Source of the DNA: Patescibacteria group bacterium
GTDB taxonomy: Bacteria > Patescibacteriota > UBA1384 > XYA2-FULL-43-10 > 1-14-0-10-43-13
Assembly: GCA_041674765.1 (NCBI GenBank)
Contig: JBAYVE010000003.1
Location: 2,040 to 66,039 of the forward strand
Length of the DNA stretch: 64,000 nucleotides
Direction of reading: 5' to 3'
Every line of letters starts with the position of its first letter. Position 1 is the stretch's first letter. The translations under genes and the position numbers were made by a program. Shown piece after piece: positions 2,925-49,827 of this stretch. The notes below the pieces were generated by a model. That model was not told the origin of the DNA. It saw only the letters and a list, made by a program, of their open reading frames with translations, and ran no database searches.

Positions 2925-3528
2925 ATTCTCCTGTTCTTTTTATAATTGCCTGAGCCAATGGTTGAATTTTCGCCTGTTCTGGTCGGTAGAAACTGTAAAA
3001 TAAATCAAGTATTTCGAGACTTGAGAGTTGTCTTGCAGTCATGCCAATTTTTTCTAAACCTTTAATGATGATTTCCTGTTCGAGCATAAGCTGTTCTTTC
3101 ACTGTAGGAAAATCAACCTTTCCCTTATTGTCATGAGGAATTACAAGGTAAAATTTTCGAGAGAGAATTTTATTGCCAGAAACGAGCTTTTTAATGAACT
3201 CTGAATAATTTTTAAGTTGATCCTTGTAGATTGTTTCGGTTTCATTCTTAAGTTTCCCCTCGAAGTCCTCGAGATAACGGTCAATATCAAGTTCTCTGAC
3301 TCGGACCAAGATTTGAATCGGCATTGTCAGGCTGTTTAAGAAAGCTTGAAAAGCGTCAACGATCACATCCTGTTCTTCCTCGCTTTGGAGTTCAAAGTTT
3401 AAAGAAGAGGTCGATAGAATTGTACGATAGCGATCATCCGGCAAGATTAGAATTCCGTCTCTTACCTCCTTGATCCCGATTTGAGTTCGAGCTGAGCCGT
3501 TAGTTTTCGGCTTTTTTGAGTTCAACAT
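2911..3528 (-). CDS. VirB4 N-terminal-domain-like protein (VirB4 appears split into two ORFs)
   Basis: 205 aa with IKEVRDGILILPDDRYRTILSTSSLNFELQSEEEQ, resembling the N-terminal region of Gram-positive-type VirB4 (PrgJ/TcpF). Overlaps the ATPase ORF by 14 nt. The downstream ATG has its own AGGAGA RBS. Confidence 0.45.
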   Translation of the reverse strand: MLNSKKPKTNGSARTQIGIKEVRDGILILPDDRYRTILSTSSLNFELQSEEEQDVIVDAFQAFLNSLTMPIQILVRVRELDIDRYLEDFEGKLKNETETIYKDQLKNYSEFIKKLVSGNKILSRKFYLVIPHDNKGKVDFPTVKEQLMLEQEIIIKGLEKIGMTARQLSSLEILDLFYSFYRPEQAKIQPLAQAIIKRTGEYDFL

Positions 3529-4006
3529 TTAAACCTCCTTTCTTTGATGGTTTAAAAGAAAGCCTTACCAAATTTTCATTGAATAGCTGATCAATCTTTA
3601 TCTGGTCATGCAAGCTGATTGTTTTGGTGTTCTTGCTTTCCACTTTAATTTCTGTTTTCTTTGCTTCAGTAACTTTTGGTTCTTTGATAATAATTTCTCG
3701 ATGGATTGGGTCGTTTTTGGTAAAGATGTATCGCCTTGGACGGGAGTTGAAACGAAGTAAAATGACTAGCCATTCACCCAAGATCTTGCCGTTAAATCGC
3801 AAAGATAAACCGCCAAAGAAGATGAACTCGATCGCAATCAAGGTCATCTTAATAGTACCAAAGTGCATCTTGGGCATGACAACGGCATAGATCAGAGCGC
3901 CTATTACCATAGACATTACAAGGAGTACGATCTGGGGCAATGTTAAATTTCCGGCGATTCTATCTTCAACGGTGGTGATTTGGGCTGGCACTACTGTAGT
4001 TTTCAT
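3500..4006 (-). CDS. small 2-TM membrane protein at the VirB3/PrgI-like position
   Basis: 168 aa with two hydrophobic helices, then a Lys/Glu-rich tail. Sits between the VirB6-like and VirB4 genes, overlapping both. Confidence 0.35.
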   Translation of the reverse strand: MKTTVVPAQITTVEDRIAGNLTLPQIVLLVMSMVIGALIYAVVMPKMHFGTIKMTLIAIEFIFFGGLSLRFNGKILGEWLVILLRFNSRPRRYIFTKNDPIHREIIIKEPKVTEAKKTEIKVESKNTKTISLHDQIKIDQLFNENLVRLSFKPSKKGGLNVELKKAEN

Positions 4007-5286
4007 CTGGCGCTTGCTCCTCTCTTAACAGTTTCCTTAACAACGGTGGTATTCTTGGCATTGGATACTGAAATTACATTCATGATCTGGCCGCCAAGCT
4101 TTTTCATCATATTTGAAGATCCGCTCATTAAGGCTAGTTGGATTGCTGTTCCTGTGCTCTTCAGGAGAATCGAGAACAAGGCAATACCGATAAGGATTGA
4201 AATGACCGGATTTGCTCCGACCTGTCCGGGGACTGTAAGGAAAGCGGAAGCAAGCTGAATTATGACTACATGGATAAAAACGGTAAAAATGGTGATGAAA
4301 TATGCCTTTGTTAGATTTGCGGCAAAATCTGCCATACTTGGGATTAGCGCAATTGCGCAGACAAGCGGAGAGATTACAGCACCGAAGGCAAGAATCATAA
4401 GGCGCGAGATGTAGAAAAGAAGTAAGACTGCTGCAAGGATGATGAAGATAATAACGAAGATTAAGGTAATGAGCGCAGTTGTGCCACTCAGAAAACTTGC
4501 CGGATCAAAAGCATTTAATATCCAAGCTGTACCTAATCCTCCAGTGGCATTTAAAATGGAATTAACTAATGTCTGGCAAAGCTGAATAACCCAATCAATC
4601 AAAAAGATTGAGGTGTTAGCTCCGACAAAAGCTAGGGCAACTTTGGGCCAAAGATCTTTCAAACTCACTTCTTCAAGGCCAAAGGTGCTTCCGCTCATCA
4701 CTCTAAAGCCAAGCAATGCAATGATGATCGCAAAGAGTGAATCTGTGATTCCGACCATGACTAACCAAAAATTAAAAACAACAGAATTTGAAGCTAATGA
4801 TGGAGTAGAAGTCAGAAACCAAGTTATGCCGTCAAGGACCGGTTTAGTGGCCGACTGGATGATATTTTGCAAGAAGCCAAAGATAGCATCAATAATGACT
4901 TGGGCTAAAGAGTTATCAGATTCTACTGGCTCAATCGGACTCATATTTAGAGCAGTTCCAGTTGCGTTATTGGCAGGCTGTGTCATCGCGCTATTTAGCA
5001 TTGAGCTAAAAACAAAAGCCCCAATAACGATTATTAAACCAATTAAGGCGTTTCTAATCGTTCTCTTTGCTTCATCGAGAGCAGCAGGATTGCCGGTTGA
5101 AGTGATATACAAATACCCGCCACGAACAAGGAAGAAAACCACAGCAACAGAAGCAAGACCGATCAAAGCGGTCATGGCGTCATGAGTGAAATTCTCAACC
5201 TCTGGATTGGAAGCGGCAAAGGCGATGGCGGGAGAAAACAGAATAGCGCAAAAGAGAATAATTTTAGTGATTACTCTTTTCATCAA
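4003..5286 (-). CDS. polytopic membrane protein, VirB6/TrbL-like, with an N-terminal pilin-like domain
   Basis: 427 aa with a signal peptide (AFAASNPE) and many TM helices. N-terminal segment RGGYLYITSTGNPAALDEAKRTIRNALIGLIIVIGAFV is paralogous to the adjacent 116-aa pilin-like protein (GGIGYITSSGNPENLDRSKKTLVYSSFGLAISIAAFV). Confidence 0.55.
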   Translation of the reverse strand: MMKRVITKIILFCAILFSPAIAFAASNPEVENFTHDAMTALIGLASVAVVFFLVRGGYLYITSTGNPAALDEAKRTIRNALIGLIIVIGAFVFSSMLNSAMTQPANNATGTALNMSPIEPVESDNSLAQVIIDAIFGFLQNIIQSATKPVLDGITWFLTSTPSLASNSVVFNFWLVMVGITDSLFAIIIALLGFRVMSGSTFGLEEVSLKDLWPKVALAFVGANTSIFLIDWVIQLCQTLVNSILNATGGLGTAWILNAFDPASFLSGTTALITLIFVIIFIILAAVLLLFYISRLMILAFGAVISPLVCAIALIPSMADFAANLTKAYFITIFTVFIHVVIIQLASAFLTVPGQVGANPVISILIGIALFSILLKSTGTAIQLALMSGSSNMMKKLGGQIMNVISVSNAKNTTVVKETVKRGASAR

Positions 5287-5290
5287 GGAA

Positions 5291-5641
5291 TTAGTTGAAT
5301 GCGTTCTTTGCTAAATCAGTAACAATGTTAGAAATAACGAAAGCAGCAATTGATATTGCTAAACCAAAACTTGAATAAACAAGTGTTTTCTTTGAACGAT
5401 CTAAATTCTCTGGATTGCCTGACGAAGTGATATATCCAATACCGCCTACTACAAAAAAACCGGCTGCTAATAGACCGGCAATGGTGACGAGGACTTGGAT
5501 AACGTTTTGTGCAAAGTTTTGTACTTTTGCGATATCGCCAGAATCAGCAAATGCCGGTGTTGCTGAAATTAATAGTACGATAAAGGAGAGACCAAGAGGC
5601 CGGAGACGTTGTAACATGATAACCCAACTTTCTCCCCTCAC
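5291..5641 (-). CDS. pilin-like protein (VirB2/TrbC-like), first gene of the T4SS-like operon
   Basis: 116 aa with a signal peptide ending ...PAFADSG and two hydrophobic helices. Shares a motif with the N-terminus of the next gene. Confidence 0.5.
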   Translation of the reverse strand: MRGESWVIMLQRLRPLGLSFIVLLISATPAFADSGDIAKVQNFAQNVIQVLVTIAGLLAAGFFVVGGIGYITSSGNPENLDRSKKTLVYSSFGLAISIAAFVISNIVTDLAKNAFN

Positions 5642-5804
5642 ATTTTATATTTAATTTACTAAGCGCTTGCTAACTATTTATTATTACCAATAAAAGGTTA
5701 AATAATTATTAAATTAATCTAAAGAAAAACTTAAGGTTGTTATGAAATTGTCATACCTTACTTTGAATATATGTAGCAATTGCTTGCTTGTCAAGAGGAC
5801 TATA

Positions 5805-6191
5805 TTACTTTGCCTTTTTTTCAACTAGTTCATTTATCCTGTTTACCAATTGTTCTGGCAAGATATCTATCTTCATAATATAATCATCGGCATCACCACT
5901 GATCCTGTTTTGATCTATAGGATTCAGGTTTAGTGCCGTGAGAACAACCACTACTATATCTTTTATTCGAGGATCTTTTCTAATTATCTTTAAGAGTTCA
6001 TCACCTTGCATTTTAGGAAGCATTAAGTCCAGGAGAATAGCATCTGGAAGGTATTCTTTATCTTTAAACATCTCAATCGCATCTTCGGCAGAATAAGCGA
6101 TTTTTACTTCCCATTTGGCAAATTCAAACCTCATTCGATATAAATCGCTACATCCCCAGTTATCATCAACAATAAGTAATTTTTTAGACAT
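5805..6191 (-). CDS. stand-alone response-regulator receiver domain (CheY-like)
   Basis: LLIVDDN acid pocket, LLDLMLP phospho-acceptor Asp region and a conserved Lys region. No output domain. Confidence 0.8.
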   Translation of the reverse strand: MSKKLLIVDDNWGCSDLYRMRFEFAKWEVKIAYSAEDAIEMFKDKEYLPDAILLDLMLPKMQGDELLKIIRKDPRIKDIVVVVLTALNLNPIDQNRISGDADDYIMKIDILPEQLVNRINELVEKKAK

Positions 6192-6239
6192 AAGCCTCCT
6201 CGCGGAGCAGTTGTATATTAAATTTTAATTAAGTAAACG

Positions 6240-7880
6240 TTAAAGAACTCTTAAATTCGTACCATCGGAGTGAATTCTCGTTGCCTGTCTTATTTCTTTA
6301 TACTCCAGTGGCAAGGAAAAGTAAAAAGTTGAACCCTTATCTTTATCCGATTCAAGCCACATATCACCACCATGAAGATTTATTATATTTTTAGAGATAT
6401 ATAGCCCGAGTCCTGATCCTTGCTGTTCTTGGGGATTCCTAGGGTCGAATCTGCCAGCTTGATAGAATTTTTCAAAGAGGTGTTTTTGATCTTCCTTTTC
6501 AATGCCGATACCTGTATCAGCCACAGAGATAACAACTTTATCATCCTTAAGCTTCGAAGTGACTGCGATCTTGCCATTATTGGTAAATTTATTGGCATTG
6601 TTAATTAAATTAGTTACGACTTCCCCAATTTTGCTTTGGTCAATTGTTAGTTTAGGAAGTGACCTGCTCATTGGAATATATGCAATTGAGTTGCCTTTTT
6701 CTTTGGTCTTAATTTCCAGACTGGAAACAATCTGTGAGATTAATGGATCAATATCTGTCTCAATAGGATTAATTGTTAATCTATGTTGATCAATTCGAGC
6801 AACATTAAGAACATCTTTTGATAGATGAGCCAGCCTCATTACTTGATCAAGTATCGGCTGAAAGTAGGCTTTCTGTTCATCATCTAATTTGCACATGTTT
6901 TCTCTAATAGCCATATCCATTCTACCTTGAATAGCTGTAATCGGAGTATTTAATTCGTGAGTAGCCATCTGAAGAAATTCATCTTTCATTCGATCAAGCT
7001 CAACAAGTTCTTTTTTATCATGTTCTAATTGTCTAGCCAATTTCTCGTTTTTTTCAGCATAAAGTATCTGCTGTTTATTTTTTTGAACTAACATGTTGGC
7101 AGCTACAATAGTTAGAATCTCCAGAAAGACCTTTATTACAAAACCAATTTCTTGGGTTGAAAATAATGCTAGACCCATCGAAATGACTATAAAATAAGCA
7201 ATTATTTCAACAGTCGCAGTTTTTAAGTCCATTAAATGTTCTTTCATAATTGCATACGCAGTTAAAAGAACTAGTACAATAGAACTTGGACTATCCAGGA
7301 CATTATATTTTGATATGCCCATCGAGGGCAAAACAAAACCTACAATCGACGATACTATAACAACGAAAGCCAAACCGATACCAAAAAGTTTGATTTGTTC
7401 TTTGTATTTTTTATCGCCCTTGTGATATCGCCAAATAAGTAAACCTAACAATCCCACAAAAAGGATAATCACATATATAGTATATATGCCGAAAAGAGGT
7501 CCGGTCTCGTAATGAGAATAATCAGTTATTGATCTAATCATGTCATTTGAAGTAAAGAATAAGACCACAAAGACTGATGCAATAAGAAGTGCCAAATAAT
7601 TAGCCGCCCTTATAATCCATCCGGAGAGCTGGCCTCCCAAAAGGTTGATAAAGTAGAATGCTGACATTATCAAAAATGGTGCAAGCGCATATATAACGTT
7701 TAACACCATCAAAGAATTGGTTGTTTGAAGAAAATAATTTAAGATTACCCACGTTCCTGTTAGAAACGTAAAAAGAGAAAACGATCTGGTTAATGGCTTT
7801 TTGTAACCAGATTTTATAACGTAAAAGCTGAGTATGTAATTAAATAGTGCTACGATTAAAATAAATTGCGACATAATCAC
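6240..7880 (-). CDS. sensor histidine kinase with a multi-TM N-terminal sensor
   Basis: H-box HELNTPITAI. HATPase_c G-boxes DTGIGI and GSGLGLYISKNII. About 7-8 N-terminal TM helices. Confidence 0.85.
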   Translation of the reverse strand: MIMSQFILIVALFNYILSFYVIKSGYKKPLTRSFSLFTFLTGTWVILNYFLQTTNSLMVLNVIYALAPFLIMSAFYFINLLGGQLSGWIIRAANYLALLIASVFVVLFFTSNDMIRSITDYSHYETGPLFGIYTIYVIILFVGLLGLLIWRYHKGDKKYKEQIKLFGIGLAFVVIVSSIVGFVLPSMGISKYNVLDSPSSIVLVLLTAYAIMKEHLMDLKTATVEIIAYFIVISMGLALFSTQEIGFVIKVFLEILTIVAANMLVQKNKQQILYAEKNEKLARQLEHDKKELVELDRMKDEFLQMATHELNTPITAIQGRMDMAIRENMCKLDDEQKAYFQPILDQVMRLAHLSKDVLNVARIDQHRLTINPIETDIDPLISQIVSSLEIKTKEKGNSIAYIPMSRSLPKLTIDQSKIGEVVTNLINNANKFTNNGKIAVTSKLKDDKVVISVADTGIGIEKEDQKHLFEKFYQAGRFDPRNPQEQQGSGLGLYISKNIINLHGGDMWLESDKDKGSTFYFSLPLEYKEIRQATRIHSDGTNLRVL

Positions 7881-45007: not shown

Positions 45008-45221
45008 GAACAAGAAACAAAGCGAAGATATATTCAAAGATTTGGGTGTGAAGCTCAGGGGTTTTCGCGAGAAAACTGGAATGACCCAAGCGGAAGTGGC
45101 TGAACAGGCCGGAATTCATGTAAATTATTATGCTCGGATTGAGAGAGGCGAAGAGAATCCTACATATGAAGTGCTTCTCAAAATCAAGAGCGCACTAAAA
45201 ATAAAGTCAGATCTCGTCTAA
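45006..45221 (+). CDS. XRE-family HTH transcriptional regulator
   Basis: MTQAEVAEQAGIHVNYYARIERGEENPTYEVLLKI. Confidence 0.8.
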   Translation: MNKKQSEDIFKDLGVKLRGFREKTGMTQAEVAEQAGIHVNYYARIERGEENPTYEVLLKIKSALKIKSDLV

Positions 45222-45406
45222 CTCCTTTTGTTCTTTGTAAATTTCCCTTAATTTAGGCTCCCAATCCAGAACTATATCGAAAAAGGTGTTCCATGTTTCA
45301 AGATTAAGGTCCACCAATAAAAAGATTAGTCCTAGACTAGTCTTTTTATTATACCTGTAGCGAATAATAGAACCCTGCCTTAAAAAGAAGGAGGGCCAGC
45401 GTGCAG

Positions 45407-46411
45407 CTAGCCCTTGGGGTTGAACGAGGGGTAGGGAAATTTGGAGTTCAATTTCCCACAGAATCTGAGGATGGCATCTCGAGGAGTTTGTAGCAACGAC
45501 AGTGCTTGCAGCAAGGCAACGACTCGCTGTGGTGCTAAGGTGATCCAACTTGGAATGATATAGCACCAGATCGAGCATCCTTGGCAGAATGCATGCTTGC
45601 CCTGCATTTTCATCGCCTTTAAACGATGAGATGAGTTTACCGCTTCGCGAAGATTCAAGTCGTCGAGCGATATACTGCCCACTTCCCGATGGAAACAAGG
45701 CAGAACCAGGCGGTTGTCAGACGAGATTGTAAGAACCGAACTAACAGCCTTGCAGGTGGGGTTTTGAATATTATTTCCACCTCGTGCAATAAATCTCAAC
45801 TTACCGCGACTTGTTTGAACATCGGCCTGTTTCGCAAACCAGAGCAACAACTCCATCTCATCTGAACTGAACTCTGAATCAAACAGTGGATTTACATTGA
45901 TCATTACGCCAAATTCTCTCGCTAAACGCAGAACATCACAGAATATTTCAGATCTTATATTACCTTTTTCTCCAGGCATTACAGTAAAAAGCAATTGAGT
46001 TGGTCTATTCTGTCTCACTGAACGAGCCAGTTCCAATCCATGGAGAATACTGGGGTAAAAACCATGTCCATGGTGATTGTGATAAGACTCATCACCATCA
46101 ATCGAAAAGCGAAGAATTGTTGGTAAGCCGATTAATTCTTCGCCTCGTCTGGCAATCATCGGTCCACTGACGGTAAGTGAACTGACTTGATCCAGACGGT
46201 TTGATAACTTCAATGCTTCTCCTAGCCAATCGCAGAGCAATGGATTGCCACCTGTGAAATCGACATAAGGAATTCGAAGTTCTTTGATCTGGAGCAAAAG
46301 GCCTGCAATCTTGTCGAAATCAGCATCTCCAGGATAGGAGGAGCGAACTCGGCAGAAACTGCAGACATGATCACACCTTGTAGTGCAATACAGTTGAACT
46401 GCCGAGAGCAT
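45407..46411 (-). CDS. radical SAM enzyme with a C-terminal Cys-rich auxiliary-cluster region, in a second small GC-rich island
   Basis: Start set at ATG 46411 (RBS AAAGGAG). CDHVCSFC Cx3Cx2C, FTGGNPLL motif, C-terminal C..C...C (HAFCQGCSIWC). About 50% GC against about 35% in the flanks. Confidence 0.75.
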   Translation of the reverse strand: MLSAVQLYCTTRCDHVCSFCRVRSSYPGDADFDKIAGLLLQIKELRIPYVDFTGGNPLLCDWLGEALKLSNRLDQVSSLTVSGPMIARRGEELIGLPTILRFSIDGDESYHNHHGHGFYPSILHGLELARSVRQNRPTQLLFTVMPGEKGNIRSEIFCDVLRLAREFGVMINVNPLFDSEFSSDEMELLLWFAKQADVQTSRGKLRFIARGGNNIQNPTCKAVSSVLTISSDNRLVLPCFHREVGSISLDDLNLREAVNSSHRLKAMKMQGKHAFCQGCSIWCYIIPSWITLAPQRVVALLQALSLLQTPRDAILRFCGKLNSKFPYPSFNPKG

Positions 46412-46579
46412 CTCGATCTCCTTTCTGGAAGATAAGACGACAATAACAAAAATGTAGTAATATGACAATTTAATGAGCTTAAGTTTCATTTCGAACCGTT
46501 ACACTTTAAAAAAAGACATCCCAACCTGTTTCCTTGTAATATGGTAGTACCAGCTAACATATACTAGGAGGGAATTAGA

Positions 46580-46809: not shown

Positions 46810-49800
46810 ATGGCAAAAGAATATGATTTTAAGACAATCGAAAGAAAGTGGCAAGATTATTGGGATAAAATTAGTTACGGCAAGTCCGAGGATTTTTCTG
46901 ATAAGCCCAAGAGCTATCAGCTAGTTGAATTCCCCTACCCTTCAGGCTATGGTCTCCATGTCGGTCATTGCATGGGTTATGGCGCTTCGGATATATATTC
47001 CAGAATGCTTCGGATGCAGGGATTCAACGTGATGTATCCGATGGGTTGGGACGCTTTTGGCTTGCCTACGGAGAATTTTGCAATCAAAACCAAGCAGAAA
47101 CCTCAGATAATTACCGAGCAGGCCGTTAAGACTTTTAAAACGCAGATGAAATCTCTTGGTTATTCATTTGATTGGGACAGAGAAATCAATACGACTGATC
47201 CTGACTATTATAAATGGACTCAATGGGTATTTTTGCAATTTTATAAACACTCATACCAAAATGGTAGATTAGTACCCGTCGCTGACGATGACAGGACAAC
47301 ACCCAGACTTGCTTTCCAGGCAGAAATGCCGGTCAATTGGTGTCCTTCTTGTAAAATTGTTTTAGCAAACGAGGAAGTCGTTGCCGGCGCTTGTGAGAGA
47401 TGCAAAACCGAGGTGTCTAAGAAATCTCAGAAGCAGTGGATGCTTCGAATTACCGCCTATGCCGATAGATTGATCAAGGATTTGGATACTGTTGATTATT
47501 TGGACAAAATTAAGACTCAGCAGATCAATTGGATTGGTAGAAGTGAAGGCACGGAAATAGAATTCAAGATTCAAAAAAATAAGGAATTCAATTCCGAAAT
47601 TACATACACCCCACCTAGCCTCCCCTCTAAAAGGGGAGGAAATGAGTTCGAGGATGACACTATTTTATTCAATGGCAAGAAGAAGGTTATCAAGGTTTTT
47701 ACGACTCGAGCAGATACACTTTTTGGTTGTACTTATGTTGTTTTATCGCCAGAATGCACTTTGTTGCAGGAACTGAAACCTCAAATAACAAATTGGGATG
47801 AGATCGTCGCCTATGTTGAAAATGCTGCAAAGAAATCTGACTTAGAACGGATGGAATTGGAAAAAGATAAAACCGGTGTAGAATTGGCTGGAATTAAGGC
47901 AGTAAATCCAATTAATGGCGAAGAAGTACCTGTTTTTGTGGCGGATTATGTCTTAGCGAGCTATGGAACGGGTGCTGTGATGGCTGTGCCGGCTCATGAT
48001 GACCGGGATTTTGAATTTGCTAAGAAGTATCATTTACCAATAAAGCAAGTCGTAATTCCGGTTTTTGGTGAAAAACATGAAAATGAAGAAACAAGAAATA
48101 CAATTACTGCTGTTGTTAAGAGGAAAAGTGATGGTAAATTTTTGTTAATATCTTGGAAAGGTTTCGGTTGGTATTCAACTGTGGTTGGTGGTATCGAGCT
48201 GGACGAAACACCAGAAGAAGCCGCTGAGCGGGAGGTTTTAGAGGAAACTGGTTACAAAGTCAATGCGATCGAAAAGATTGGTGGAATTACTGAAGCTCAT
48301 TTCTATCATGATGGCAAAAAAATCTGGCGAAAGCGTTTTGACCAACCAGTCTTTTGCGAACTGATTGATGAGAAACTTATTCAGAAGGCAGAAATTGATA
48401 AGCATGCCCCTCTTTGGCTTGACGGGAAAGAGGCATTAGAGAAAATAACTCATTATGATAATAAGATTGGACTGGCCAGATACTTGAACGGTAATTATTC
48501 AAACACAGACTATGGTATTCTAATAAATTCCGATGGTTACGATGGTTTAAGCTCAGCAGATGCCAAGAGAAAAATCACCGAAAAGCTGAAAGAAATTGGC
48601 GCTGGCGATTTTACTATCAATTTCAAGTTGCGTGACTGGATTTTCTCCCGCCAGCATTATTGGGGTGAACCGATTCCGATCGTTCACTGTGATCCGCAAG
48701 CTGGCGGATGCGGAGTTGTGCCTTTGGGTGAGAAGGATTTACCGTTGACCCTACCGGATGTTGAAAACTATGAGCCGACAGAAACCGGCGAATCCCCTCT
48801 TGCAAAGATTACTGATTGGGTCGAAACAACCTGTCCGAAATGTGGCGGGAAAGCTATGCGCGAGACAGATACAATGCCAAACTGGGCTGGCTCATCTTGG
48901 TACTTCATCGCTTATGCTCTAAATCAAAACTTAAAACTCAAAAGTCAAAAAGAAGGAAATCTATTTGATGATAATAGCAAAGAAGTCGATTATTGGATGC
49001 CGGTAGACTTATATAATGGCGGAATGGAACATACAACCCTTCATCTGCTATATTCCCGTTTCTGGCATAAATTTCTGTACGATTTGGGGAAAGTGCCCGG
49101 AGCAGAGCCTTATTCTAAGCGTATTGCTCACGGCATAATTTTGGGACCCGATGGCAGGAAGATGAGCAAATCTTTTGGCAATGTGATCAATCCAGATGAT
49201 ATCGTTAAACAATTTGGTGCGGATACTTTGAGAGCTTATATTGCTTTTATTGGTCCGTACGATCAGGAATCGGCCTGGAGTACCGCTGGTGTTCAGGGAG
49301 TATTTCGCTGGCTGAAACGGCTTTGGAATAATATTGATAAAGTTGACGACTTCAAAGATGAAGATCAGCTGCTAGTTAAGCTAAATCAAACTATCGTCGG
49401 CGTGACCGATGATATCAGAGAGTTTCGTCTAAATACAGTAATTTCCAAGCTGATGGAGATGAATAATATGATCGAAAAAACAGGTAAAATTTCTCGTGAT
49501 TTATACAATAAATATTTGAGGTTGCTTTACCCGGCCGTGCCTCACATCGCCTCAGAATTGTGGGAGATAGCTCAATTTGAGGGAAAAATTGAAGAACAAG
49601 AATGGCCAGAGGCAGATACTAAATATTTGATCTCGGAAACTATTGAAATCGTTGTTCAAATCAATGGTAAGGTGCGGGATAAATTAACCGTTTCTTCAGA
49701 AATTACCGAAGAGGAAATGAAAAAAGAAGCATTGAATTTGGAAAAAGTTCAACAGTTTGTGCAAGGCAAAGAGATTGTAAAAACAATAGTAGTGCCAAAG

Positions 49801-49827
49801 AAGCTTGTTAGTATCGTAATCAAATAG
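46810..49827 (+). CDS. leuS: leucyl-tRNA synthetase with two insertions (about 30 aa near residue 265; about 150-aa Nudix-box domain after the editing domain)
   Basis: HIGH as HVGHCMGY, KMSKS present, TTRADTLFG editing domain, AVPAHDDRDFEFAKKY, FKLRDWIFSRQHYWGEPIP. 1005 aa against roughly 860 aa typical. Confidence 0.95.
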   Translation: MAKEYDFKTIERKWQDYWDKISYGKSEDFSDKPKSYQLVEFPYPSGYGLHVGHCMGYGASDIYSRMLRMQGFNVMYPMGWDAFGLPTENFAIKTKQKPQIITEQAVKTFKTQMKSLGYSFDWDREINTTDPDYYKWTQWVFLQFYKHSYQNGRLVPVADDDRTTPRLAFQAEMPVNWCPSCKIVLANEEVVAGACERCKTEVSKKSQKQWMLRITAYADRLIKDLDTVDYLDKIKTQQINWIGRSEGTEIEFKIQKNKEFNSEITYTPPSLPSKRGGNEFEDDTILFNGKKKVIKVFTTRADTLFGCTYVVLSPECTLLQELKPQITNWDEIVAYVENAAKKSDLERMELEKDKTGVELAGIKAVNPINGEEVPVFVADYVLASYGTGAVMAVPAHDDRDFEFAKKYHLPIKQVVIPVFGEKHENEETRNTITAVVKRKSDGKFLLISWKGFGWYSTVVGGIELDETPEEAAEREVLEETGYKVNAIEKIGGITEAHFYHDGKKIWRKRFDQPVFCELIDEKLIQKAEIDKHAPLWLDGKEALEKITHYDNKIGLARYLNGNYSNTDYGILINSDGYDGLSSADAKRKITEKLKEIGAGDFTINFKLRDWIFSRQHYWGEPIPIVHCDPQAGGCGVVPLGEKDLPLTLPDVENYEPTETGESPLAKITDWVETTCPKCGGKAMRETDTMPNWAGSSWYFIAYALNQNLKLKSQKEGNLFDDNSKEVDYWMPVDLYNGGMEHTTLHLLYSRFWHKFLYDLGKVPGAEPYSKRIAHGIILGPDGRKMSKSFGNVINPDDIVKQFGADTLRAYIAFIGPYDQESAWSTAGVQGVFRWLKRLWNNIDKVDDFKDEDQLLVKLNQTIVGVTDDIREFRLNTVISKLMEMNNMIEKTGKISRDLYNKYLRLLYPAVPHIASELWEIAQFEGKIEEQEWPEADTKYLISETIEIVVQINGKVRDKLTVSSEITEEEMKKEALNLEKVQQFVQGKEIVKTIVVPKKLVSIVIK
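47619..47639 (+). repeat. perfect GC-rich hairpin CCTCCCCT-ctaaa-AGGGGAGG inside leuS coding sequence (encodes PPSLPSKRGGNE within an insertion)
   Basis: Read directly. Sits in an approximately 30-codon stretch with no counterpart in the E. coli LeuRS alignment as recalled. Confidence 0.5.
48060..48460 (+). other. Nudix-hydrolase-like domain inserted in LeuRS between the CP1/editing domain and the catalytic core
   Basis: Perfect Nudix box GGIELDETPEEAAEREVLEETGY (Gx5Ex7REUxEExGU). Flanked by KYHLPIKQVV (end of editing domain) and GILINSDGYDGL (resumption of canonical LeuRS). Confidence 0.7.

Follow-up and report, generated by a model that had tools for sequence, protein, structure and literature searches.

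A Nudix hydrolase domain in the CP1 editing domain of leucyl-tRNA synthetase from a Patescibacteria group bacterium

Extra catalytic domains in aminoacyl-tRNA synthetases (aaRSs) are regarded mainly as a eukaryotic trait. What, then, is a Nudix hydrolase domain doing inside a bacterial leucyl-tRNA synthetase (LeuRS)? The question is raised by the leuS gene of a Patescibacteria group bacterium (assembly GCA_041674765.1, contig JBAYVE010000003.1), which lies in a stretch of 64,000 nucleotides (positions 2,040 to 66,039 of the forward strand) that was analysed as a whole. We call this stretch the window, and nucleotide coordinates count from its first letter unless a locus is named. A sequence-only reading of this DNA had noticed a Nudix box within LeuRS and suggested that a built-in Nudix enzyme might police leucyl-AMP (Leu-AMP) or diadenosine tetraphosphate (Ap4A). 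Here we describe the insert, its recurrence in other LeuRSs and as a separate gene beside leuS, and the functions that may explain the association, of which we tentatively put the clearance of nucleotide by-products first.

The Nudix insert and its host enzyme

The leuS open reading frame (ORF) is complete (46810..49827, plus strand; 1005 aa plus stop) and encodes a bacterial-type LeuRS with an inserted Nudix hydrolase domain at aa 416-568 (48055..48513, plus strand), as located by Pfam, an exact Nudix box, AlphaFold2 (AF2), Foldseek and alignment borders. The Pfam NUDIX model (PF00293) covers aa 433-542, scoring 46.9 bits (cut-off 21.1; E = 3.5e-12), and the box itself, GGIELDETPEEAAEREVLEETGY (aa 460-482, nt 48187-48255), is an exact fit to GX5EX7REUXEEXGU. 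This strict box occurs a single time in the six frames of the 64-kb window, in which no further Nudix genes were found. When AF2 was run on the Nudix domain alone, with 11 homologues, it gave a predicted local distance difference test score (pLDDT) of 90.3 and a predicted TM-score (pTM) of 0.85; the box falls on the helix formed by residues 53-65 of the domain. A Foldseek search with this model retrieved Nudix structures at probability 1.00; there were 549 PDB matches at E<=1e-3, and all 50 of those listed are Nudix proteins. The top match was 2AZW from E. faecalis (TM-score 0.75), and the other best matches included mycobacterial MutT1/Rv2985, the Aquifex Ap4A hydrolase, Thermus Ndx1, DR1025 and RppH. 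Box, profile score and alpha/beta/alpha sandwich fold all place the insert in the Nudix superfamily, which confirms the earlier view that a genuine Nudix domain with an intact box sits inside LeuRS. That it would fold as an independent domain is borne out by the models, in which it is predicted confidently both alone and within the full-length protein.

In an alignment of 61 fusions, no variation is seen at the catalytic residues E466, R474, E475, E478, E479 and G481 or at the family-specific residues R429, W454, K503, R507 and W536. Such invariance is the pattern expected of an active enzyme and suggests that catalysis is under selection, while the basic plus aromatic character of the family-specific set fits nucleotide-polyphosphate binding. 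The domain resembles small (di)nucleoside polyphosphate Nudix hydrolases (3I7U, 1VC8, MutT1/Rv2985, 2AZW) in box, alpha/beta/alpha fold and size (TM-score 0.69-0.75, E = 1e-9 to 1e-11). Unlike these, to which it is 18-25% identical, it belongs to a family that has its own invariant residues and is embedded in or encoded beside LeuRS. NCBIfam returned weak, sub-threshold matches only, to NudB, MutT, YtkD, NudE and RppH. We infer that the insert is a complete Nudix pyrophosphohydrolase, predicted to be catalytically competent and probably taken up as a whole-protein module.

To place the borders, we compared the window protein with LeuRSs that lack the domain. Against the closest relatives that lack the insert (P0204, P0208, P0225 and others; 65-73% identical in the backbone) it has 153 extra residues, aa 416-568, at a place where a loop varying from 12 to 30 aa is found in these relatives, between '...IKQV(I/V)' and '(F/Y)TDYG.LINS'. 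Alignment to the reference LeuRS of T. thermophilus (1H3N) defined the borders as well: residue 415 pairs with T. thermophilus residue 362 and residue 567 with residue 379, the 153-aa Nudix domain replacing the 16-residue CP1 loop (residues 363-378) of the T. thermophilus enzyme. The sequence-only reading had given the domain as 48060-48460, which covers most of it and falls short of the insert borders at 48055-48513. Its placement of the insert between CP1 and the catalytic core has to be revised. Because the 185-position model of the editing domain (PF13603) matches both before the insert (positions 19-140) and after it (positions 156-184, aa 565-593), the Nudix domain lies in a loop inside CP1.

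Apart from the insert, the protein looks like an ordinary, complete bacterial-type LeuRS. It scores 894 bits with the TIGR00396 leuS_bact equivalog (cut-off 548.4), the match being split into three stretches by the insert, and its likeness to 1H3N is strong (phmmer E = 1e-192). Besides NUDIX PF00293, Pfam identifies the class I catalytic domain, the PF13603 editing domain (E = 4e-55) and the anticodon-binding domain. With the bacterial enzymes of T. thermophilus (1H3N/2BYT) and E. coli (4AQ7) it shares the core with HIGH and KMSKS, the zinc module, a CP1 domain with Thr-rich motif and Asp, and the anticodon-binding and C-terminal domains. All parts lie on the plus strand. The N-terminal half of the catalytic (Rossmann) core, which includes the zinc-binding module (aa 1-255, 46810..47574), aligns to T. 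thermophilus residues 3-237 and carries the HIGH motif as HVGH (aa 50-53, nt 46957-46968). It is followed by a short lineage-specific linker (aa 256-287, 47575..47670), 32 aa without a counterpart in T. thermophilus, which is predicted to be disordered (AF2 pLDDT <50 over aa 261-289). The same pre-CP1 position is the site of Ser_hydrolase, HAD or Nudix domains in relatives, and the linker may be a remnant of, or a landing pad for, insertions. The main body of CP1 (aa 288-415, 47671..48054; PF13603 positions 19-140, E = 1e-46) holds the Thr-rich editing motif TTRADT (aa 298-303) and AVPAHDDRD (aa 392-400), both invariant in 70 relatives; we take TTRADT and HDDRD (aa 396-400) to correspond to E. 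coli T247/T248/T252 and D342/D345. Beyond the insert, the C-terminal remainder of CP1 (aa 569-600, 48514..48609; T. thermophilus from residue 379) leads the chain back to the second half of the catalytic core (aa 601-853, 48610..49368), which contains KMSKS (aa 784-788, nt 49159-49173). The anticodon-binding and C-terminal domains (aa 854-1005, 49369..49824; PF08264 at aa 854-966) align to the T. thermophilus C-terminus. A further difference from T. thermophilus is that the leucine-specific domain (~57 residues, T. thermophilus 580-636, before KMSKS) is absent: the alignment jumps from residue 779 to 784 where T. thermophilus goes from 579 to 637 (window 49140-49180).

HVGH and KMSKS are both invariant in the same 70 relatives, and the full-length AF2 model, built from 70 sequences, reached a pLDDT of 84.8 (~88-94 over the Nudix region) and a pTM of 0.74. 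With the HIGH, KMSKS and editing motifs all intact and the model superposing on E. coli LeuRS (TMt 0.84), the synthetase looks functional. The earlier reading had already noted HIGH and KMSKS as intact, to which the editing motifs and the anticodon-binding domain can now be added.

The fusion is not a product of assembly. A single continuous ORF runs through the insert with LeuRS sequence in frame on either side, and the identical protein (P0164, present in NCBI, JGI, ENA and Logan) is encoded by an ENA contig of 135 kb and, independently, by a Logan assembly of 5.5 kb, the DNA of both being 100% identical to the window. Given two identical assemblies, 75 diverged homologues and significant Pfam and fold matches, it is next to impossible that we are dealing with an artefact such as a chimeric assembly, a frameshift fusion or a chance motif. 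Misassembly and an ordinary insertion with a chance box, the two doubts that the sequence-only reading had raised against itself, are thereby ruled out. We also considered a mobile-element or intein-like insertion and rejected it: no direct or inverted DNA repeats were found flanking the insert, there is no compositional break at the insert, the Pfam scan detected no splicing domain, and the domain is in frame in all homologues.

Recurrence in other LeuRSs and as a gene beside leuS

Among the 120 nearest LeuRS proteins in a collection of 5.8 billion proteins, 75 have a Nudix domain at the site seen in the window, so the fusion is not a one-off. The strict box is kept in 71 of these 75, and in 141 of 160 Nudix domains within CP1; it is degenerate in the others (4/75 and 19/160). 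Could the domain, therefore, be non-catalytic, either a structural spacer or an NrtR-like sensor of a nucleotide (ADP-ribose, Ap4A, ppGpp) that modulates LeuRS allosterically? Its position in the mobile CP1 domain would suit such a role, as would the degenerate boxes of the minority. The invariance of the catalytic box residues in the 61 fusions, however, is the signature of an active hydrolase, and we consider a sensor or spacer very improbable.

An exhaustive phmmer search with the 153-aa domain as the only query, against 1.84 billion cluster representatives, returned 542 matches. LeuRS makes up 94 of the best 150 of these, and 79 of the 80 matches of at least 400 aa; no other aaRS and no other abundant protein appears among the long ones. 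This Nudix clade is therefore mainly a LeuRS module, judging from the search, and its members seem to be nearly always physically coupled to LeuRS. The in-CP1 architecture of the window is the dominant one in the clade. In other LeuRSs, one or two Nudix domains precede CP1, or another comes after about residue 673, with up to three copies in total; there are thus at least three insertion sites, and one to three copies per LeuRS. The exact same site is occupied in about 20 loci among GTDB species representatives, from many phyla of the candidate phyla radiation (CPR) and from DPANN archaea. The bacterial labels include Buchananbacteria, Saccharibacteria, Parcubacteria, Dojkabacteria, Peribacteria, SR1, Absconditabacterales, Nomurabacteria and Taylorbacteria, and the archaeal ones Pacearchaeota, Woesearchaeota and a bin called 'archaeon'. 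Of the three loci with an archaeal label, two lie beside genes of archaeal type, for an RpoD-like subunit and for a GluRS with archaeal/eukaryal anticodon domains. The LeuRS-Nudix combination recurs in hundreds of ultra-small bacteria and archaea.

The window protein is named 'MAG: class I tRNA ligase family protein [Patescibacteria group bacterium]' in NCBI, and several insert-bearing LeuRSs are named alike, whereas insert-free relatives with an NCBI name go by 'leucine--tRNA ligase'. The insert seems to keep the automatic naming rule from applying, leaving the gene under-named by annotation pipelines. Full-text literature on Nudix with LeuRS, aaRS, editing domain or CPR/Patescibacteria yielded no description of a Nudix-LeuRS, in keeping with the sequence-only reading, which knew of none; the single paper in which Nudix, aminoacyl-tRNA synthetase and candidate phyla radiation all occur (PMC7159879) brings them up in contexts that have nothing to do with one another. 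The architecture is abundant but unremarked in public databases, and the window protein belongs to a large and so far uncharacterised group.

The closest relatives of the window Nudix domain are not other inserts but free-standing proteins (P0001-P0009), which are 50-60% identical to it over their full length. They are 157-170 aa long, apart from a truncated copy of 143 aa (P0009), and their alignment to the insert includes the N-terminal VFGxxHEG strand. One of them is annotated as 'RNA pyrophosphohydrolase [uncultured archaeon]' (GCA_902385225.1). By these alignments the stand-alone Nudix proteins of DPANN archaea are, in all likelihood, true orthologues of the insert, differing from it in being separate proteins encoded directly downstream of an insert-free leuS. 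At five of nine informative loci (L003, L005, L023, L086, L087) the free-standing gene comes next after leuS in the same orientation, and the gap between the two is 10-98 nt. It is 10 nt in L003, where leuS is at 3328-5991 and the Nudix gene at 6001-6483, and 98 nt in L005; at L086 the fragment upstream of the Nudix gene is a LeuRS C-terminus. The adjoining leuS is bacterial-type and insert-free. At L004 the downstream synteny of L003 is kept and an IS66 transposase lies upstream. As a control, 56 generic Nudix loci from the same scan were considered, and not one has a LeuRS within 5 kb. Domain fusion and the conserved position beside leuS thus independently indicate a link with LeuRS.

The contig of L003 also codes for TFIIB and ribosomal protein S8e. 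Several DPANN contigs, with TFIIB, S8e and RpoD-like neighbours, encode a bacterial-type LeuRS (PF13603) with the Nudix domain either inserted or as the next gene (L003 3328-6483; L005 1657-4912; L012, L015, L024). The distribution implies that a leuS(-nudix) unit may have moved between CPR bacteria and DPANN archaea. At L015 a HAD_2-family gene (6962-7615) starts 5 nt after the LeuRS-Nudix gene; its product is beta-phosphoglucomutase/phosphatase-like, with weaker matches to PpaX-type pyrophosphatases. We considered HAD as a conserved third partner and rejected the idea: the L015 protein is not close to the HAD insert of a related LeuRS (P0018), and none was found beside leuS in the other 31 loci of the family, so that L015 stands as an isolated case.

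An accessory module that occurs fused, as a neighbour or as a free gene is also known from the ProRS INS/YbaK/ProXp and AlaRS/AlaX systems and from IleRS with GNAT (NF040702). The editing modules ProRS INS/YbaK/ProXp and AlaRS/AlaX exist both in cis and in trans. This duality is one argument for a role in adenylate proofreading or detoxification, in which the Nudix domain, as a built-in editing or resistance module, would destroy non-cognate aminoacyl-adenylates, Leu-AMP or antibiotics that mimic leucyl-adenylate. That IleRS, another class I aaRS, can carry a domain modifying small molecules, and that LeuRS is the target of TM84, the adenylate mimic of agrocin 84 (PDB 3zgz), would also speak for it. 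The INS/YbaK, AlaX and GNAT modules, however, act on aminoacyl-tRNA or amino groups, unlike the insert, which is a Nudix pyrophosphohydrolase. Nudix enzymes cut pyrophosphate linkages, whereas an aminoacyl-AMP is an acyl-phosphate, hydrolysed by HIT-family enzymes. Neither aminoacyl-AMP nor its sulfamoyl and phosphoramidate mimics carry a pyrophosphate bond, and sequence support for this role is absent. Leu-AMP, one of the two substrates first proposed, is thus chemically unlikely, and we give adenylate proofreading or detoxification only a slim chance.

Possible functions of the Nudix domain

If not the adenylate itself, what would a pyrophosphohydrolase find to cleave on LeuRS? The leading reading, which we hold tentatively and at rather less than even chances, is the clearance of dinucleoside polyphosphates (ApnN), Ap4A among them, by a predicted active pyrophosphohydrolase tethered to LeuRS. 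The Nudix domain would then be an accessory clean-up activity, and its substrate a nucleotide-polyphosphate by-product of the leucine-activation site, likeliest Ap4A, Ap3A or Ap4N. By-products of this kind would arise when the aminoacyl-adenylate meets ATP or another nucleoside triphosphate (NTP) instead of tRNA, and Nudix cleavage would return them to ATP and AMP. Given the variable insertion site and the existence of a separate-gene form, what would matter is that the domain is co-localised or co-expressed with LeuRS, and no fixed geometry or substrate channel would be involved. We put ApnN clearance first because dinucleoside polyphosphates are the sole well-established aaRS by-products with a Nudix-cleavable pyrophosphate linkage, and because the nearest characterised neighbours of the domain act on polyphosphates. 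Its best matches among characterised structures and sequences are indeed of polyphosphate type, namely the diadenosine polyphosphatase MutT1/Rv2985, the Aquifex Ap4A hydrolase, the Thermus Ap6A hydrolase Ndx1, DR1025 and DIPPs. Dunn et al. are said to have noted in 1999 that an aromatic residue (Tyr) ~16-18 residues after the box marks specificity for diadenosine polyphosphates (ApnA). The window domain has F498 and Y499 at +16 and +17 after the box; F498 is present in 91% of fusions, and residue 499 is F in most relatives. The chemistry itself is established: aaRSs make Ap4A and Ap4N from the aminoacyl-adenylate, and Nudix hydrolases split Ap4A asymmetrically into ATP and AMP (PMC13627108).

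Several observations weigh against ApnN clearance. The main Ap4A producer named is LysRS and not LeuRS (PMC13627108), so that the Ap4A idea leaves the choice of LeuRS as carrier unexplained. The domain bears little resemblance to ApnA hydrolases, at 18-25% identity and a TM-score of about 0.7, and RppH, MutT-like, CDP-choline, NudB and ADP-ribose enzymes trail the ApnA type by only about 1-4 orders of E-value, at 12-25% identity; the similarity ranking barely discriminates between Nudix classes. Furthermore, close syntenic relatives, in which the leuS locus has the order PLD-like, HTH ... leuS, rpmF, nusB, rnc, peptidase S11, lack both the insert and a Nudix gene next to leuS. It follows that LeuRS does not need the Nudix domain and that the module was gained or lost over short evolutionary scales; any coupled Nudix-LeuRS function is facultative. 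Finally, related LeuRSs contain other hydrolase inserts, of the Ser_hydrolase/alpha-beta hydrolase (PF06821, PF00561) and HAD_2 families. These lie before CP1 (P0166, P0029, P0280, P0110), near the position of window aa 630 (P0060) or near that of aa 680 (P0018). They often co-occur with Nudix, though P0280 has the alpha/beta hydrolase without it. LeuRS in CPR lineages seems to gather hydrolase modules at a few permissive loops, and it could simply be a permissive scaffold for housekeeping hydrolases.

Another possibility is that the domain is an RppH- or NudC-like RNA-end pyrophosphohydrolase. Held by CP1 near the acceptor end, it would strip 5'-triphosphates or caps (NAD, Np4A) from tRNA-Leu or other bound RNAs. 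Some DPANN archaea make leaderless tRNAs that carry a 5'-triphosphate. The matches by structure and by profile include RppH and mRNA-decapping Nudix effectors, and CP1 binds the 3' end of the tRNA, which adjoins the 5' end (LeuRS-tRNA structures such as 4AQ7). These matches are no better, however, than those to ApnA hydrolases. The widely separated insertion sites and the separate-gene form oppose a geometry-dependent action on bound tRNA, and a specificity for tRNA-Leu would be left unexplained. We therefore regard an action on RNA ends as improbable.

The scaffold argument leads to a further possibility. Here the Nudix domain would be a hitch-hiking housekeeping enzyme, a MutT-like NTP sanitiser or a general ApnA/ppGpp hydrolase without catalytic tie to LeuRS; being essential, abundant and tolerant of insertions, LeuRS would guarantee the expression of accreted hydrolases in minimal genomes. 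The unrelated Ser_hydrolase (PF06821) and HAD_2 domains at the same permissive sites would be accounted for in this way, as would the variation of insertion site and copy number and the close relatives that manage without an insert. The pattern of divergence points in the same direction. Identity to the window is unimodal for the LeuRS backbone (62-73%) and bimodal for the Nudix domain (alignment columns aa 416-568), at 46-59% in 10 sequences and 27-38% in 50, which suggests either two Nudix lineages in one loop or replacement by recombination, and seems to favour module swapping over tight co-evolution. In a rough, unbootstrapped neighbour-joining tree the archaeal free-standing genes fall beside the subclass of the window, and the pre-CP1 copies are scattered, a topology that suggests module replacement together with several independent insertions. 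What hitch-hiking leaves unexplained is that 79 of the 80 long matches are LeuRS, and that the archaeal orthologues stand directly after leuS, where the control Nudix genes are never found. We therefore think it rather unlikely, if a serious rival to ApnN clearance.

The co-occurrence of different hydrolases can also be read more broadly. CPR and DPANN LeuRSs might possess a dedicated accessory hydrolase system, usually Nudix, with HAD or alpha/beta-hydrolase sometimes added, which would act in cis or as an operon partner and clear a LeuRS-specific nucleotide-linked by-product or inhibitor. We regard such a system as possible, though doubtful.

Neighbouring features and implications

Downstream of leuS, rpmF, nusB and rnc, the window has a gene of the '23S rRNA intervening sequence protein' family (PF05635; 51556-51912, plus strand). 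It is also present, on the opposite strand, in the syntenic block of two relatives (L091, L092) and is absent from two others (L089, L090). On the other side of leuS, the local GC content rises to 0.48-0.49 at 45350-45800, against about 0.38-0.41 around it, within a minus-strand radical-SAM gene (45407-46489); an ORF of 163 aa (45207-45698) overlaps there. ARAGORN found no tRNA or tmRNA genes in the 64-kb window.

Altogether, an active-looking nucleotide pyrophosphatase has been recruited repeatedly, and at differing positions, to one synthetase across two great radiations of ultra-small symbiotic prokaryotes. The combination of fusion and conserved operon partner points to a hitherto unknown connection in function between LeuRS and the hydrolysis of nucleotide polyphosphates. 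A dedicated accessory hydrolase system, if it exists, would constitute a new layer of aaRS quality control or by-product clearance, distinct from the editing of aminoacyl-tRNA. Should the substrate be Ap4A or another ApnN, as we tentatively favour, LeuRS would be the first aaRS with an alarmone-clearing activity of its own, and would show how minimal cells keep such by-products in check. Should the substrate differ, the domain would point to a new side reaction of LeuRS, or to a new threat to it.

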